DNA from: an uncultured Alphaproteobacteria bacterium
GTDB taxonomy: Bacteria > Pseudomonadota > Alphaproteobacteria > Methylaequorales > Methylaequoraceae
Direction: 5' to 3'
Assembly (NCBI GenBank): GCA_902524895.1
Contig: CABZFH010000003.1
Span: forward strand, 71,433-135,432
DNA length: 64,000 nucleotides
This document shows positions 728 through 58,286 of this stretch, in pieces (positions within the stretch are counted from its first letter, which is position 1; the number at the start of each line of letters is the position of its first letter). The notes beneath the pieces were generated by a model. It had not been told where the DNA came from, made no database searches, and was given only the letters and a program-made list of their open reading frames with translations. Both the position numbers and the translations under genes were made by a program.

Positions 728-1696
728 ATGGGAAAAAAGGATTTAAAGTTGAGAATATTAAATGATTCCACCAATTCTATTAATACTGCTTCTAAATTAA
801 TTTTAAATGGTGACGCCGTTGCAGTTATGGCTGAAACTGTTTATGGTTTAGCAGTCGACGCTTCAAATAAATCAGCTATTAAAAACCTTTATTCTCTAAA
901 AAAAAGACCAAAAAATAATCCCTTAATAATCCATGTTGAATCTATAAATATGGCGCTAGAATTTGGAAAAGGAAATGAAGATTTTTTAATTTTAGCTGGC
1001 ACATTCTGGCCAGGACCACTTACAATTATTTTGCCTCAAAAAAAAAAATCCTCGATCTCAAAAGAAGCAACTGCAGGTTTAAAATCTGTAGCACTTAGAA
1101 TGCCTAAATCTAAAGTTTTTTTAAGACTAATAAAAAAAGTTGGGAAACCGCTTGCTGCGCCGAGTGCTAATCTTAGTGGATATATTTCGGCAACGGATTC
1201 AAAGCATGTGCAAGAATGTTTTAAAAATAATATAAAGTTAATTCTTGATTCTGGAAGATGTGAATATGGTCTTGAATCAACAGTTATCAATCTTACAAAA
1301 AAACCATACATTATAGAAAGAATGGGAGTAATTAACAAAGAAGAAATTTTTAAAAAAACAAAAATTTTAACAATTGAAAAAAATCAAAAAAAAAAGAAAA
1401 TAGTTTCACCAGGCCAATTATTCAAACATTATTCACCCAAGAAACCTCTACGACTAAATGCTAAATATCCAAAAATTGGTGAATCTTTTTTGGCATTTGG
1501 TAGTACCTTTGCAGATTCTAAATACTGTTTAAATTTATCAAAAAAATCTAATCTTAAAGAAGCAGCATATAATCTATTCTATTATTTGAGAAAACTTGAT
1601 AATTTAGAAAAAAAAAAGATTGCTGTTTCTCCAATTCCAATGAGAGGTTTGGGTAAAACCATTAATGAAAGATTAAGGAGAGCTTCCTTAGGATGA
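728..1696 (+). CDS. tsaC: L-threonylcarbamoyladenylate synthase (Sua5/YwlC/TsaC family, long form)
   Basis: Motifs ETVYGLAVDASN, KKRPKNNPLIIHV and LAAPSANLSG, plus a Sua5-type C-terminal domain. Confidence 0.85.
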   Translation: MGKKDLKLRILNDSTNSINTASKLILNGDAVAVMAETVYGLAVDASNKSAIKNLYSLKKRPKNNPLIIHVESINMALEFGKGNEDFLILAGTFWPGPLTIILPQKKKSSISKEATAGLKSVALRMPKSKVFLRLIKKVGKPLAAPSANLSGYISATDSKHVQECFKNNIKLILDSGRCEYGLESTVINLTKKPYIIERMGVINKEEIFKKTKILTIEKNQKKKKIVSPGQLFKHYSPKKPLRLNAKYPKIGESFLAFGSTFADSKYCLNLSKKSNLKEAAYNLFYYLRKLDNLEKKKIAVSPIPMRGLGKTINERLRRASLG

Positions 1697-47815: not shown

Positions 47816-48088
47816 TATTTTTATTAGTCAGATTATATAAAACATATTTTTACATAAAATAAACAATATTAAACAATATTCTTTAATTTTTTTATTTTTC
47901 TAATATTATCTAACTGCCAGTAATGGCTATGGCAATAAATGTTTGATTTGTGATCTGAGACGGACCCGGGGGCGGTACCCGGCGCCTCCACCAAAATTTT
48001 GTGGGGGCGAAATAGGATCGACGTGCATGGGAATCTTCAAAACTTTGCTCGGTGTAGTTCCACCGTTATCGGACTAAAATAAATATGT

Positions 48089-48121
48089 GCTAACGATAAT
48101 GAAATGGCACTCGCTGCTTAA
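48089..48121 (+). other. tmRNA tag reading frame: ANDNEMALAA-stop
   Basis: gct aac gat aat gaa atg gca ctc gct gct taa. The ANDN start and hydrophobic LAA end are typical of proteolysis tags. Confidence 0.8.
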
Positions 48122-48150
48122 TTAAGTAAGCGCTGCAATGAGCGCGGGGC

Positions 48151-48312
48151 AACAGAAGTCTCATCGGCAAGGGCGGGCAATTGTTCGCCCTTGTTTGTTT
48201 TAGGGAGACTCACAAAGGGTTTCAGAGGATTCACTCTTCAACAAACAAGGGAAACAATAGTGCAATAAGTTGCACACACTCTGCACACACTCTGCACACA
48301 CTTTTGTTTGTT
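48151..48312 (+). repeat. ssrA-3'-end repeat copy 1 (functional gene end plus right arm)
   Basis: aacagaagtctcatcggcaagggcgggcaattgttcgcccttgtttgttttagggagactcacaaagggtttcagagg.. followed by 3x tgcacacac at 11-nt spacing (48271, 48282, 48293). Ends in cttttgtttgtt. Confidence 0.9.
48168..48201 (+). terminator. hairpin plus T-rich tail at the end of the ssrA coding piece
   Basis: caagggcg (48168-75) pairs with cgcccttg (48186-93) across a 10-nt loop, followed by tttgtttt. Confidence 0.6.
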
Positions 48313-48323
48313 CAATATATGTT

Positions 48324-48722
48324 CTAGATACTGACTTTGTTTGAATAAATCTTATTCCAAGTTTCAATGGTATCCTTTGGTAAAAAATTAGGTAAAAACT
48401 TTATGCCTAGTTCCTTTAGTCTTAGACAAGTTCCTACCAAATCAAGTTCAACTTTTTTATTACACTTTCGTTTATGAGCAGAATATATATTTTGGTCTTT
48501 ATCAAGAAAATCTGGTGTTAGTGCAAAATTTACAATTCCAATTTTAAAACCAATTATATGAGACGATTCAAGAGGATTATCTTTTGTAGGTGGTTGAAAA
48601 CATACTTCACAAATTTGCTTTTTCTTTTTTTTTATATATCTGACTGGCATTCTCTTTATGAATGTTTGCCATTCACTTTTAGTCAAAAAAACTCTGTTAT
48701 TAAATCCAATGTTTGTTTTCAT
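48324..48722 (-). CDS. hypothetical protein with weak HNH-nuclease-like motif
   Basis: 132 aa; ICEVC(x14)SSHIIGF ... NIYSAHKRKCN gives a CxxC..H..N..H-like spacing. First ORF after repeat copy 1. The family call is tentative. Confidence 0.4.
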   Translation of the reverse strand: MKTNIGFNNRVFLTKSEWQTFIKRMPVRYIKKKKKQICEVCFQPPTKDNPLESSHIIGFKIGIVNFALTPDFLDKDQNIYSAHKRKCNKKVELDLVGTCLRLKELGIKFLPNFLPKDTIETWNKIYSNKVSI

Positions 48723-51733: not shown

Positions 51734-51804
51734 ACAAAAATTATATTAGTAAAGAGTTGAATATCCAATCGTTTTCTTCTTGAAATTCGACACACAGAAG
51801 AAGT

Positions 51805-52072
51805 AACCAATTACATAAATCGTGCAGAAATGCACCCAATTTGCACACACTTTTGCACACACTTTTTGAGAAAGTCCGAGAAACAGTACACTTTAGAGCA
51901 TATGCAGGAGAACAGAAGTCTCATCGGCAAGGGCGGGCAATTGTTCGCCCTTGTTTGTTTTAGGGAGACTCACAAAGGGTTTCAGAGGTTTCACTCAACA
52001 GAAAATAAGGGAAAAAATAGTGCGTTATAATGCACGCAGTCTGCACGCAGTTTGCACGCAGTTTTGGGTGTT
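51805..52072 (+). repeat. repeat copy 2 (left arm, core, right arm)
   Basis: Core 51911-51988 is identical to 48151-48228 (78 nt). The left arm has 2x tgcacacac (51842, 51854). The right arm has 3x tgcacgcag at 11-nt spacing (52031, 52042, 52053). cgcagt-type motifs continue to about 52118. Confidence 0.9.
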
Positions 52073-53084: not shown

Positions 53085-53339
53085 ATGGATTCAGAATCTT
53101 ATTCATCTCCAATACACCTTGGCATATATTCAAAGGTTTCATTGATTCGTGATGAATTCATTAACACAGAAAATAGTAAACTATTTGGAAGTTGTGAAAA
53201 TGAATACGAAGTTGAAAATACTTTTGAAGCATTTTGGAATAGAACGAATGGCGATTACAGTAATTCTGCTATCGTTAAAGTTCTAAAAGTAGAAAAAGTA
53301 ACAGAAAATATAGTCCAACTTAAACGAATTTCCTCATAA
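53085..53339 (+). CDS. hypothetical 84-aa acidic protein
   Basis: AGGAG lies 5 nt upstream of the ATG. The stop abuts repeat copy 3. Confidence 0.4.
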   Translation: MDSESYSSPIHLGIYSKVSLIRDEFINTENSKLFGSCENEYEVENTFEAFWNRTNGDYSNSAIVKVLKVEKVTENIVQLKRISS

Positions 53340-53584
53340 CCAATTACATAAACCGTGCAGAAATGCACCCAATTTGCACACACTTTTGCACACACTTTTT
53401 GAGAAAGTCCGAGAAACAGTACACTTTAGAGCATATGCAGGAGAACAGAAGTCTCATCGGCAAGGGCGGGCAATTGTTCGCCCTTGTTTGTTTTAGGGAG
53501 ACTCACAAAGGGTTTTAGAGGATTTACTCTTCAACAAACAAGGGAAAATGAAACGAGTTAAGTGCAACGCACTTTTGCTTTTGC
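53338..53584 (+). repeat. repeat copy 3
   Basis: Left arm 53338-53445 differs from 51805-51912 at 1 of 108 nt. The core is identical to copy 1 for 72 nt, then shows 2 mismatches. Confidence 0.9.
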
Positions 53585-54733: not shown

Positions 54734-54895
54734 TTATTCTTTTTTTTCTTCAGTTGATTCTTCTTTTTTATCTTCAGAAGACTCTTCAGTTGTTTCTTCC
54801 GCAACATCTTTTTTTTCTCCGTGCCCGTCTGCTTTTACGAATTCTGAGGAAAATAAGAATGCTAAAGAAAAAAATAAAATGTACAAATATTTCAT
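54734..54895 (-). CDS. possible 53-aa secreted acidic peptide
   Basis: MKYLYILFFSLAFLFSSEFVKA then DGHGEKKDVAEETTEESSEDKKEESTEEKKE: a signal peptide plus an E/K/S-rich tail. Below the track threshold. More plausible than the low-complexity plus-strand ORF 54709..54948. Confidence 0.4.
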   Translation of the reverse strand: MKYLYILFFSLAFLFSSEFVKADGHGEKKDVAEETTEESSEDKKEESTEEKKE

Positions 54896-55006: not shown

Positions 55007-55262
55007 ATGAAAAGTAGTCCGTGCAGAAGTCGTACAAAAAAAAACACTGATTTTCTACCCGCTTTGCGACCCACGTTTTAAAAAACCCCTAGTTATAAAG
55101 GGTTTAAGACCATACACCGAGACACAGAAGTCTCATCGGCGAGGGCGGACAATTGTTCGCACTTTTTTGCTTTAAACGTCCTCACAAAGGGTTTCAGAGG
55201 ATTCACTCTTCAACAAATAAGGGAAACAATAATTGAATAAGTAGCAGACACTTTTGTTTGTT
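55007..55262 (+). repeat. repeat copy 4 (diverged)
   Basis: atgaaaagtagtccgtgcagaagtcgt .. caccgagacacagaagtctcatcggcgagggcggacaattgttcgcac .. ttcagaggattcactcttcaacaaataaggg .. gcagacacttttgtttgtt. Confidence 0.85.
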
Positions 55263-56336: not shown

Positions 56337-56467
56337 AAAAATTATCTTTTTTCTCTATTCCTAGAAATAAAACAAGGAGAGAAACTCTTGAAGTAATAAA
56401 AAATGCTCTTGTTGCCAATGGGTGGAAATTCGTTGAAAAATCAGAAAGGAGTAAGAACAAACCTTGA
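56333..56467 (+). CDS. small ORF D4, 44 aa (MKKLSFFSIPRNKTRRETLEVIKNALVANGWKFVEKSERSKNKP)
   Basis: AAAGGAG lies 7 nt upstream. ATGA overlap with D3. The stop sits exactly at the left edge of repeat copy 5. Confidence 0.4.
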   Translation: MKKLSFFSIPRNKTRRETLEVIKNALVANGWKFVEKSERSKNKP

Positions 56468-56702
56468 GTCCATTCAGAAGTCGTGCAGAAAATGTACTCA
56501 ATTTGCAGACACTTTTTGAGTAATACCCAGAAACAGTGGGTTTTAGACAATACACCGAGACACTGAAGTCTCATCGGCAGGGGCGGGCAAATTGTTCGCC
56601 CTTGTTTGTTTAAGGTACACCTACATGGGGGCTCAGAGGATTGACTCTTCAACAAATAAAGGAGACAATAGTGCAATATGTTGCACACACTTTTTGTTTG
56701 TT
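56466..56702 (+). repeat. repeat copy 5 (diverged)
   Basis: cagaagtcgtgcag .. tttgcagacactttttgag .. caccgagacactgaagtctcatcggcaggggcgggcaaattgttcgcccttgtttgttt .. tgcacacactttttgtttgtt. Confidence 0.85.
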
Positions 56703-57193: not shown

Positions 57194-57425
57194 TGAAAAA
57201 TAGTCCGTGCAGAAGTCGTGCATAAATTATCCTCAATTTGCAGACACTTTTGCAAACACTTTTTGAGGAAATCTCAGAAACAGTCGGTCTTAGCTGATAC
57301 ACCGAGACACAGAAATCTCATCGGCAAGGTCGGGAAAATTGTTCGCCCTTATTTGTTTTAGGTAGACTCACGAAGGGGGGTCAGAGAATTTACTCTTCAA
57401 CAGATAACTAAAAATAAAAGGAAAT
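57194..57425 (+). repeat. repeat copy 6 (diverged)
   Basis: tagtccgtgcagaagtcgtgca .. tttgcagacacttttgcaaacactttttgagg .. caccgagacacagaaatctcatcggcaaggtcgggaaaattgttcgcccttatttgtttt. Confidence 0.8.
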
Positions 57426-57947: not shown

Positions 57948-58000
57948 TTATGTTTAATAATAATTTTTGTATTTCACAAAATATAAAATAATCCTACACA

Positions 58001-58212
58001 ATGAAAAGTAGTCTGTACAGAAATCGTGGAAAAAAAAATACTCATTTACAATGCACTTATTAGATAGTCCTAGATATGGGTGTCTGTATATTAACCTAGA
58101 TACAGAAGTCTCATTGGTAAGGAAGAGCGATAGCTCACCTTTGTTTGTTTTAAGTTAACTAAAGAAGTGTTTCAGAGGATTCAATTTTAAATTAATAAAA
58201 GAAATAAGGAAA
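58001..58212 (+). repeat. repeat copy 7 (most degenerate, distal end of array)
   Basis: atgaaaagtagtctgtacagaaatcgtgg .. tacagaagtctcattggtaaggaagagcgatagctcacctttgtttgtttt .. gtttcagaggattcaa. The hairpin sequence has changed but a hairpin is still possible. Confidence 0.75.
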
Positions 58213-58286
58213 AGTCTAGAAAATTTATATAAAAATTTCCAATTGATACTAGATACTGTTATGGTAAAAAAGACTGAAAGTTTCTA

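Follow-up and report, generated by a model that had tools for sequence, protein, structure and literature searches.

The small integrase-less cassettes behind the tmRNA gene of this streamlined marine alphaproteobacterium most likely keep the arm sites of a rare ocean integrase. In the reading that we favor, to which we give a probability of roughly 0.7, the phased 8-9-mers at the cassette junctions are arm-type sites of a lambda-style attP, and the array arose by the stacking of elements that descend from a rare ssrA-targeting element and have lost its integrase. The original prediction had compared the repeats with the arm-type sites of lambda-like tyrosine integrases, and this comparison is supported by autonomous relatives, in which a tyrosine integrase ends at the left arm and the attP carries the 9-mer in a 2 + 3 arrangement.

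The analyzed stretch of 64,000 nt (the window; GC content 28%) contains a circularly permuted, alphaproteobacterial, two-piece tmRNA gene, ssrA (Rfam RF01849, 183.6 bits; RF04321, 135.2 bits), with hflKC, mrp and thyX located upstream. The repeated unit, consisting of the final ~23 nt of the coding piece of the tmRNA, the terminator hairpin and ~60 nt of flank, is present in seven direct copies (Table 1). These copies are part of seven attP-like modules of ~265 nt that follow the tmRNA gene and separate six cassettes, and copies 2-7 have a conserved left arm of ~100 nt. The six intervals, 0.75-3.8 kb each, encode an FkbM methyltransferase, an outer-membrane barrel, lipoproteins and small secreted or membrane proteins, and no recombinase gene was found within the six window cassettes.

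Table 1. Coordinates of the tmRNA gene, the core copies and the cassette arms in the window
Feature	Coordinates	Strand	Remarks
Permuted two-piece tmRNA gene (ssrA)	47878..48166	+	last ~23 nt = start of the common core (attB side)
Copy 1 core	48144..48258	+	tmRNA 3' end, terminator hairpin 48166-48195, conserved P' block AAAGGGTTTCAGAGGATTCACTC...; aligns to the contiguous attP of integrase-bearing L151
Cassette A right (P') arm	48271..48301	+	TGCACACAC x3, 11-nt spacing (48271, 48282, 48293)
Cassette A left (P) arm, in copy 2	51804..51903	+	CGTGCAGAA at 51821, then TGCACACAC x2 (51842, 51854), 12-nt spacing
Copy 2 core	51904..52018	+	94% identity to copy 1
Cassette B right arm	52031..52061	+	TGCACGCAG x3, 11-nt spacing; (T)GCACGCAG at 52031/52032, 52042/52043, 52053/52054
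Cassette B left arm, in copy 3	53337..53436	+	TGCACACAC x2 (53375, 53387); motif unlike B right arm, arm subtype the same (I/I)
Copy 3 core and type-II right arm	53437..53572	+	one GCAACGCAC (53564-53572)
Cassette C left arm, in copy 4	55016..55115	+	GTGCAGAA/GTACAAAA pair (55021, 55032), then decayed pair CTACCCGC / GCGACCCAC (55055, 55066); subtype II/II
Copy 4 core and right arm	55116..55251	+	one GCAGACAC (55244-55251)
Cassette D left arm, in copy 5	56467..56554	+	one GCAGACAC (56505-56512), same as the right arm at 55244
Copy 5 core and right arm	56555..56690	+	one TGCACACAC (56682-56690)
Copy 6	57202..57410	+	left arm with GTGCAGAA pair, GCAGACAC (57240) and GCAAACAC (57252); then core (from ~57302); right arm decayed
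Copy 7	57998..58213	+	most decayed; left arm with CAATGCAC (58049), then core (from 58094)

The motif positions given by the original prediction for TGCACACAC, (T)GCACGCAG and GCAGACAC were all correct; the pair in the left arm of cassette A is spaced by 12 nt, not by the 11 nt of the right arms in the window. TGCACACAC occurs eight times in the window against 0.04 expected (none of 100 shuffles reached eight), always on the + strand and inside the array. The pattern GCASRCAS occurs 15 times against 1.5 expected, 14 of the 15 being in the array and on the + strand. Just five further copies of TGCACACAC, all isolated, are present outside the window in the whole 1.43-Mb genome, and the ~110-nt core and the left arm are confined to the array and absent elsewhere in the genome; the motif is therefore not the generic genome-wide repeat that had been named as the objection to be feared. 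Several members of the set were additional to those predicted: the TGCACACAC pair in the left arm of copy 3, the lone GCAACGCAC and TGCACACAC in the right arms of copies 3 and 5, respectively, GCAGACAC with GCAAACAC in the left arm of copy 6, and GCGACCCAC in the left arm of copy 4. Left arms 4-6 also carry, at their outer end, a second conserved pair, GTCCGTGCAGAA/GTC-GTGCAGAA, with 11-nt spacing (55021/55032, 56483, 57207). A promoter or terminator role of the repeats was rejected, since promoter-like matches in the array are no commoner than in shuffles (61 vs 63), and also because the repeats vary in sequence and match between cassette ends.

Of 36 genomes from the same family, 30 contain the core, with 1-7 copies each. 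We compared 20 arrays fetched from relatives, which are marine single-cell and metagenome genomes (21 arrays in the counts), and one layout is common to all internal copies of the fetched arrays. The order in the left arm is AGTCCGTGCAGAAGTCGTGCAGAAAA, ~10 nt, ATTT, a variable 8-9-mer, TTT(T) and the same 8-9-mer, followed by TTTTTGAGAAA, a small hairpin and ..ACCGAGAC up to the core. The core consists of ACAGAAGTCTCATCGG, the terminator and ..AAAGGGTTTCAGAGGATTCACTC..AATAAGGGAAA, and the right arm of either of two ~16-nt linkers, one to five copies of the variable 8-9-mer, and TTTTGTTTGTTC. In the 21 arrays, the motif occurs exactly twice, at a spacing of 11 or 12 nt, in 31 of 45 left arms, and 2-5 times in 25 of 55 right arms; 36 of the 40 gaps in right arms measure 11 nt. 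The motif variants include GCACACAC, GCAGACAC, ACAGACAC, CGCAGACAC, CAATGCAC and CAATACAC, and further GCAATACAC, GCAACGCAC, GCGACCCAC, GTGATACAC, GCATACAC and GCACGCAG. As in an attP of the lambda type, the motifs stand on both sides of the tmRNA-end core and outside the stretch shared with attB, both in the 21 arrays and in the integrase-bearing contig L151 described below.

The same variant at both ends of cassettes A and D, as originally claimed, was confirmed (TGCACACAC in A, GCAGACAC in D). Cassette B had been described as breaking this pattern, and the motifs of its two ends do differ, but the arm subtype outside the motif agrees (I/I), as it does in A, D and E (I/I) and in C (II/II). 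For each cassette of the larger sample, the right arm of copy i was compared with the left arm of copy i+1 by their longest common substring, and at least 11 shared nt were counted as a match. By this measure 14 of 38 cassettes match, against 3.1 expected (maximum 10 in 10,000 random re-pairings). With metagenome contigs added and homologous cassettes collapsed into 29 clusters, 12 of the 29 dereplicated cassettes match, against 1.55 expected (maximum 7 in 20,000 permutations, p<=5e-5), and at least 10 distinct variants are involved, so that the proposed co-variation of variants between cassette ends holds beyond the window. In roughly half of the cassettes overall, the ends differ or have decayed. 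Matching was found in 6/9 cassettes beside the live tmRNA and in 6/20 later ones, as would be expected if cassettes insert at the end of the gene and decay later, the youngest being the most intact.

The type of the right-arm linker (I or II) also co-varies with the type of the next left arm (14/1/4/8, Fisher p=0.0027, for classes made by hand), and this co-variation outside the motif takes in window cassettes B and C, whose motifs differ. The right-arm linker lies between core and motif and yet co-varies across the cassette, which locates the exchange in the core rather than in the repeats. Where within the core the crossover lies is inferred; linkage of polymorphisms gave no position there, because the arms are mosaic. 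If the repeats were themselves the crossover sites, as heterospecific overlap regions through which only ends of the same variant recombine, the matched cassette ends would be directly explained, and the cargo-less junctions do join right-arm and left-arm repeats directly. We find this hardly tenable, given that the segment from core to motif varies in step with the opposite side of the cassette, that cassettes of different variants share one array, that the motif is without dyad symmetry, and that the repeat sets of L151 lie on either side of the stretch identical to the tmRNA end.

The same cassette of ~880 nt, encoding a 53-aa secreted acidic peptide, was observed at different array positions in different genera. 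A population-level insertion with an RF01849 match was reported by a long-read study in MAG LRMED-289 (PMC12379486), which supplies one of the arrays compared here. The placement of the ~880-nt cassette and the LRMED-289 insertion suggest turnover of cassettes.

The parent element, recovered from ocean metagenomes, is ~9 kb long and encodes a tyrosine integrase of 397-403 aa. The integrase ORF ends at the left arm (contigs L107, L108, L114, L150-L152, L156-L158, L160 and L161), and in four metagenome contigs fetched by a left-arm scan (L107, L108, L114 and L150) the integrase stop falls exactly at AGTCCGTGCAG. The family is rare, with 17 clusters among 5.8 billion proteins, and divergent: Tyr replaces the box-II His, Asn replaces the second His, and Pfam PF00589 is matched with 27.3 bits at a cut-off of 27.1. 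The search with the integrase profile gave no meaningful PDB sequence match, and no Pfam match to an arm-binding domain was obtained in the integrase. Foldseek with the AF2 model of the integrase detected Cre, Tn1549 Int and full-length lambda Int (probability ~1.0, E-values from 5e-5), the whole-model TM-scores in this comparison being low.

Contig L150, 9.7 kb long, has a P' arm (ACAGACAC x3) at one end, then ~15 genes, among them int, a conserved 145-aa ORF beside it and a serine resolvase, and finally a P arm. The latter carries CAATG.., unlike the ACAGACAC of its P' arm, a mismatch within one element. L151 and L152 are circularly permuted relative to L150, and the attP is contiguous in them, with the order int stop, GTGCAGAA pair, GCAATACAC x2, core, GCAATACAC x3 at 11-nt spacing, and element genes. 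The core hairpin of these two contigs has compensatory changes. In L151 the repeat sets flank a stretch identical to the tmRNA end, and five of five repeats are letter-identical across both arms. All seven window copies align to the L151 attP over 180-224 nt (E-values 5e-15 to 7e-45), and the P'-proximal backbone of L150 runs into window cassette A (48209-48326, 91% identity). Of the element backbone, the window genome has only a 45%-identical homologue of a 78-aa protein, located on a small contig. The GTGCAGAA pair, conserved in all lineages directly after the int stop, could itself be the real arm site of Int, or else bind some other factor.

The repeats might instead be iterons, forming the replication origin of an excised circular element or cassette, as short direct repeats at helical spacing can suggest; the many unannotated element genes and the circular permutation of L151 relative to L150 would agree with that. 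This is very improbable in our judgment. A Pfam scan of six element proteins recognized neither a Rep-like gene nor a primase gene, iterons commonly measure 17-22 bp, the two repeat sets lie ~190 nt apart and flank the recombination core, and cassettes without integrase or replicase retain both sets.

Decayed copies of the integrase gene link the cassettes to the parent element. Directly upstream of many left arms, a frame on the + strand ends in ...KLFPDYYGKK*, and, read back through stops and frameshifts, gives ...GLERPMYxLRHSALNQ...DKGNTSPEMIKNYYRDV, the box II and catalytic tyrosine region of a tyrosine recombinase. Such decayed integrase 3' ends (...LRHSALNQ...DKGNTSPEMIKNYYRDVRNQKQMVNDHIKLFPDYYGKK*) adjoin many cassette left arms, and pseudogene remnants of the integrase 3' end, with stops and frameshifts, are located immediately upstream of left arms in at least 10 arrays. 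The remnant peptide is uninterrupted in the four metagenome contigs, where it is the end of intact integrase ORFs, and blastx of the remnants against the P4-like integrases discussed below gave no match. The remnants belong to the new integrase family and not to the P4-like one. The cassettes have no recombination genes, and their arms and core are homologous to the L151 attP; together with the int remnants and the L150 backbone continuing into cassette A, which point to derivation by deletion, this is the composition of CIMEs.

No integrase of the parent-element family was detected in the window, in its genome (84.5% complete) or in 42 genomes of the family, and the arrays of the 42 family genomes gave no match to PF00589 and none by tblastn with four integrase families; no integrase was located in or close to any of these arrays. 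The movement of the window cassettes in trans today is for this reason only putative. The three PF00589 genes of the window genome are on other contigs, two of them being Xer-like and one encoding a 414-aa integrase. This own-genome integrase (C8, with DUF6538) was considered as the cognate enzyme and rejected; it has its own TAGGGGTAA pair and is sited elsewhere in the genome. A phage origin was also rejected, as exact-pattern scans of IMG/VR with the core, the left arm and the P' block gave chance matches (GC-rich coding DNA, iteron/rep regions) or none.

Comparison of 12 full-length integrases detected a hypervariable patch near the N-terminus. Residues 22-45 have a mean pairwise identity of 56% (minimum 29%), against 81-85% for residues 86-397, and the integrases of L150 and L108, 92% identical, have nearly all their differences in residues 25-65. 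In the AF2 model, which is of moderate confidence as a whole (mean pLDDT 66, pTM 0.41), residues 1-68 form four beta-strands and a helix (pLDDT 72-89) ahead of the core-binding and catalytic domains, and the patch maps to strands 3-4 and their loop. Foldseek did not single out the N-terminal domain; we take its sheet and helix to resemble the arm-binding folds of the lambda and Tn916 integrases.

The patch was compared with the P-arm motif of the same contig. Patch v3 is found with GCAATACAC (4 contigs, 2 protein clusters), v2 with GTGATACAC (L156), v5 with CAATACAC (L161), v6 with CGCAGACAC (L160) and v1 with CAATG.. (L150), and v4 with GCAACGCAC in L107 and with GCAATACAC/GCAATAAAC in L114; v8 is accompanied by one CGCAGACAC (L162). 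The exceptions are L114, which has v4 and GCAATACAC like v3, and v6 and v8, both beside CGCAGACAC; the integrases of L107 and L114 are near-identical, and their adjacent motifs differ by 2 nt. In this small sample the patch variants (seven or eight) appear largely to track the motif variants, not one-to-one. The predicted binding of the repeats by the N-terminal domain of the integrase is the best-supported reading and, as we estimate it, a probable one.

The repeats could alternatively bind an accessory protein, one per helical turn, such as an RDF, an Xis-like winged helix, or a bending protein of the element or the host. Direct repeats one DNA turn apart are typical of the filament-forming wHTH RDFs Xis, BldC and RdfS (PMC11963761), and the parent element has several small unannotated ORFs, including the conserved 145-aa ORF beside int. 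We regard this as unlikely, considering that two and three repeats at the outer ends of the two arms are the classic layout of Int arm sites and that the sites of RDFs commonly lie on a single arm and fall between its arm sites and the core; moreover, the motif varies by lineage, and the hypervariable region that was found lies in the integrase itself.

Other integrases of the same bacterial family have tandem repeats of their own. Genome G010 contains a 14.7-kb island at tRNA-Thr(TGT), bounded by a 69-nt repeat and carrying type III restriction-modification genes, whose integrase has 389 aa and the Pfam domain Arm-DNA-bind_3. Its P' arm opens with a block homologous to the tmRNA modules, followed by CGGGGCTCCAC x2, and its P arm, just upstream of int, has TGGGGCTCCAC x2. 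Six Arm-DNA-bind_3 integrases, 93-95% identical, are all accompanied by GGGGCTCCAC x2, and relatives at 50%, 41% and 35% identity by GGGGCTACAC, GGGGTTCCA and GGGGTAAC, respectively. The tRNA-Thr island L116 has its own motif at both ends, and each of three unrelated integrase families has a tandem pair particular to it immediately upstream of int. Since several integrase families have tandem pairs of their own, a lineage-specific pair of 9-11-mers beside int is the rule in these genomes. The P4-like Arm-DNA-bind_3 integrases at tRNA-Thr were considered as the cognate enzyme and rejected: they have a P' block of ~40 nt in common with the tmRNA modules, but their motif is of the GGGGCTCCAC type. 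Four metagenomic P4-like homologues are all at tRNA genes and have GGGG-type motifs. The P4-like integrases are an analogy and not the enzyme for the tmRNA modules.

These pairs also bear on the possibility that the repeats have no sequence-specific reader and are microsatellite-like tracts made by slippage, constrained only by phased CAC and T-tract bending, with matched ends owing only to shared ancestry. Nearly all variants retain ..CAC followed by T(T/C)T, the copy number of 1-5 suggests slippage, two cargo-less junctions (L034, L053) look like deletions between right-arm and left-arm repeats, and near-identical integrases occur beside motifs that differ by 2 nt. We nevertheless give this explanation a slim chance. 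In the intact L151 the tandem copies are letter-identical within and across the arms (5/5), the unrelated integrase families of the same hosts keep a conserved tandem pair of their own in the same position, and decay begins once cassettes are old, which argues for selection only while the element is mobile. Taken together, RDF sites, bending tracts, iterons and crossover sites each explain less than the arm-site reading does.

According to the arm-site reading, a ~9-kb integrative element would insert at the 3' end of ssrA, and the cassettes would be its stripped-down derivatives. Repeated insertion at the live tmRNA end would push older cassettes outward, and the int gene and the remaining element backbone would be deleted later, with the cargo and both arms left in place. 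Each ~265-nt junction would then be a hybrid attP, with the P arm from the left-hand cassette and the P' arm from the right-hand cassette, the two arms meeting at a core in which the final bases of the tmRNA coding piece and the terminator hairpin are duplicated. The N-terminal beta-sheet domain is predicted to bind the repeats of both arms, two in P and one to five, typically three, in P', which are spaced by one helical turn; the C-terminal domains would act on the core, and the arms would wrap into an intasome as in lambda and ICEMlSymR7A. Element lineages would differ in the motif variant and in the patch (residues ~22-45); lineages carrying different versions of motif and patch would explain why the variant is equal at both ends of a cassette and unlike between cassettes.

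A further-reaching idea is that the arm repeats and the hypervariable patch form a matched, diversifying address code, in which each integrase variant moves only the cassettes with its own 8-9-mer. The ssrA site would then serve as a population-wide, integron-like exchange; rare ~9-kb elements would drive it in trans and would hardly ever be present in the cassette-bearing cells themselves. We put this forward as speculative and rather unlikely. The at least 10 arm-motif variants beside at least 8 patch variants provide material for the question of how arm-binding domains read DNA, and the motif/patch series is possibly useful for orthogonal integrase/att pairs.

Streamlined ocean bacteria have been reported to be nearly free of mobile elements. 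The origin of the small flexible gene cassettes of SAR11-type populations has been called unresolved (bioRxiv 10.64898/2026.10.07.757358; PMC11796062). The locus offers a concrete mechanism of cassette acquisition, with one- to four-gene cassettes that have a complete split attP and a matching rare integrase family seen only in metagenomes; if the arm-site reading is right, the cassettes show how streamlined marine genomes gain new genes. The literature search found no published description of the modules, the arm repeats or the integrase family.

A close model is phage lambda, whose heterobivalent tyrosine integrase binds the arm sites P1, P2 and P'1-P'3 of its attP. The system described here is like lambda in an attP of about 240-270 bp, in the short arm repeats that flank the core, two and three adjacent and about one helical turn apart, and in a tyrosine recombinase with an extra (here predicted) N-terminal domain, full-length lambda Int being among the Foldseek matches. 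Unlike in lambda, the integrase is very divergent and rare, all repeats are direct, the motif differs by lineage, and a permuted tmRNA is targeted, at the 3' end of its coding piece.

ICEMlSymR7A of Mesorhizobium has a 283-bp attP with five 10-nt arm-type sites for IntS, all required for integration; a mini-element with attP alone integrates when IntS is given, and attP-bound IntS represses intS (PMC11963761). Both systems are alphaproteobacterial, and its five arm sites compare with the 2 + 3 of L151. ICEMlSymR7A, a conjugative element of 502 kb, is located at tRNA-Phe and has a single invariant motif, whereas the elements described here are at most 9 kb, the cassettes 0.4-3.7 kb, and the motif variants at least 10.

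CIMEs and tandem accretion at att sites have been described for ICE/IME families of Firmicutes (PMC5704250; ICEberg 2.0, PMC6323972). Like CIMEs, the cassettes are integrase-less DNA between att sites, stacked with relatives and presumably moved by the integrase of a related element; they differ in being one- to four-gene cassettes, in residing in a streamlined marine alphaproteobacterium, and in having a complete split attP with lineage-specific arm repeats.

Prochlorococcus tycheposons are islands at tRNA/tmRNA genes with specific families of recombinase and replication modules (bioRxiv 10.1101/2020.12.28.424599; Williams 2002 as cited there). The array resembles tycheposons and tRNA/tmRNA islands in the streamlined marine host, the tandem arrangement and the repeated copies of the gene 3' end. 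Set against tycheposons by description only, it differs in its arm repeats and in its integrase-less mini-cassettes with a full attP, neither of which is described in the tycheposon papers considered.

In lining up small cassettes at a single site, most of them with one gene and none with a recombinase, the locus is also functionally reminiscent of integrons. An integron was rejected as an assignment for the locus, which has thyX and ssrA upstream, where an integron would have an adjacent intI, attI and promoter, and no integrase, and whose junctions are direct modules of ~265 nt. Unlike integrons, it thus has no adjacent integrase, its junctions are attP-like and direct, not palindromic attC sites, and the capture site is the end of ssrA.

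The tandem pair GTCCGTGCAGAA/GTC-GTGCAGAA of the left arm was found directly 3' of the integrase stop codon in all lineages (all relatives) and is constant across them, unlike the variable arm repeats. We detected a serine resolvase gene in all long contigs of the parent element that targets the tmRNA gene, 1-2 genes from the tyrosine integrase gene. The resolvase could act in multimer resolution or could bind the conserved GTGCAGAA pair. The RF01712 match (Methylobacterium-1 sRNA) in the 9.7-kb, integrase-bearing element contig L150 lies just within the P' end of the element; RF01712 had no match in the window.

Coordinates of the features in the window, in related tmRNA-gene arrays, in contigs of the parent element (L107, L108, L150, L151, L160, L162) and in the same bacterial family
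Feature	Location	Strand	Detail
Tandem pair GTCCGTGCAGAA/GTC-GTGCAGAA	window 55021-55039, 56483-56490, 57207-57214		11-nt spacing
Palindrome GTGCAAnnnnTTGCAC	window 48260-48275, 56671-56686		
GTGCA-GAAA-TGCAC	window 51822-51835, 53355-53368		left arms 2 and 3; resembles GTGCAAnnnnTTGCAC
53-aa ORF	window 54734-54895	-	signal peptide, very acidic tail (MKYLYILFFSLAFLFSSEFVKADGHGEKKDVAEE...)
Core terminator hairpin	L151 2130-2153; L160 ~1555-1577		compensatory changes
Cargo-less junctions	L034 11170-11262; L053 5040-5105		
Serine resolvase	L150 7083-7673	-	196-201 aa across the contigs of this and the next row; PF00239, E=4e-36
Serine resolvase, further element contigs	L151 7894-8484; L107 527-1132; L108 2707-3297; L162 6274-6864		
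RF01712 match	L150 359-460	+	68.5 bits vs gathering score 40
Homologue of the 78-aa protein encoded by the element	own genome, contig C25 1899-2126	-	45% identical
tRNA-Thr(TGT) island	L116 (relative G010, contig C11) 4607-19383		14.7 kb
TAGGGGTAAT pair of 414-aa DUF6538 integrase	L117 (own genome, contig C8) 7598-7630		
Three near-perfect 25-nt tandem repeats (CTAAGAGTACAGTTAGATGTGGTCT)	L117 12917-12999		~5 kb downstream of TAGGGGTAAT pair/integrase start

The core hairpin reads AAGGGGTGGCGATTGTCACCCCTT and AAGGGGGGCAATTGTTCCCCCTT in the element contigs L151 and L160, versus AAGGGCGGGCAATTGTTCGCCCTT, and its pairing is kept by compensatory changes; selection therefore acts on its structure, and it probably serves as the tmRNA terminator supplied by the element. 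The palindrome GTGCAAnnnnTTGCAC overlaps the first repeat of the right arm.

At the cargo-less junctions of two other tmRNA-gene arrays (L034 and L053), the right-arm repeats are followed without a gap by the inner portion of a left arm and the initial ~16 nt of a core. Such a junction resembles the product of a deletion between the matching repeats within a single cassette, or else the end of an array. The 53-aa ORF was found again in 11 arrays, usually as the only cargo of a ~880-nt cassette, whose array position differs between genera. The sole trace of the element backbone in the own genome is the homologue of the 78-aa protein, on a 3.2-kb contig (C25) without att sequence.

Five IMG/VR viral contigs of ~40% GC (L135, L138, L140, L142, L143) have 19-mer matches that are due to chance. 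Next to these matches, 4-5 iteron-like repeats of ~22 nt each form an array upstream of an apparent replication-initiator gene; they are unrelated to the arm repeats of the window.

In the own genome, TAGGGGTAAT is present twice adjoining the start codon of the 414-aa DUF6538 integrase gene, and this pair is kept in 70%-identical homologues. The tRNA-Thr island of the same-family relative encodes type III restriction-modification, a UvrD-like helicase and an Arm-DNA-bind_3 integrase, and carries the arm repeat GGGGCTCCAC twice at each of its ends. The tRNA-Thr gene is a second stacking site in the same bacterial family (loci L118, L121, L128 and L129).
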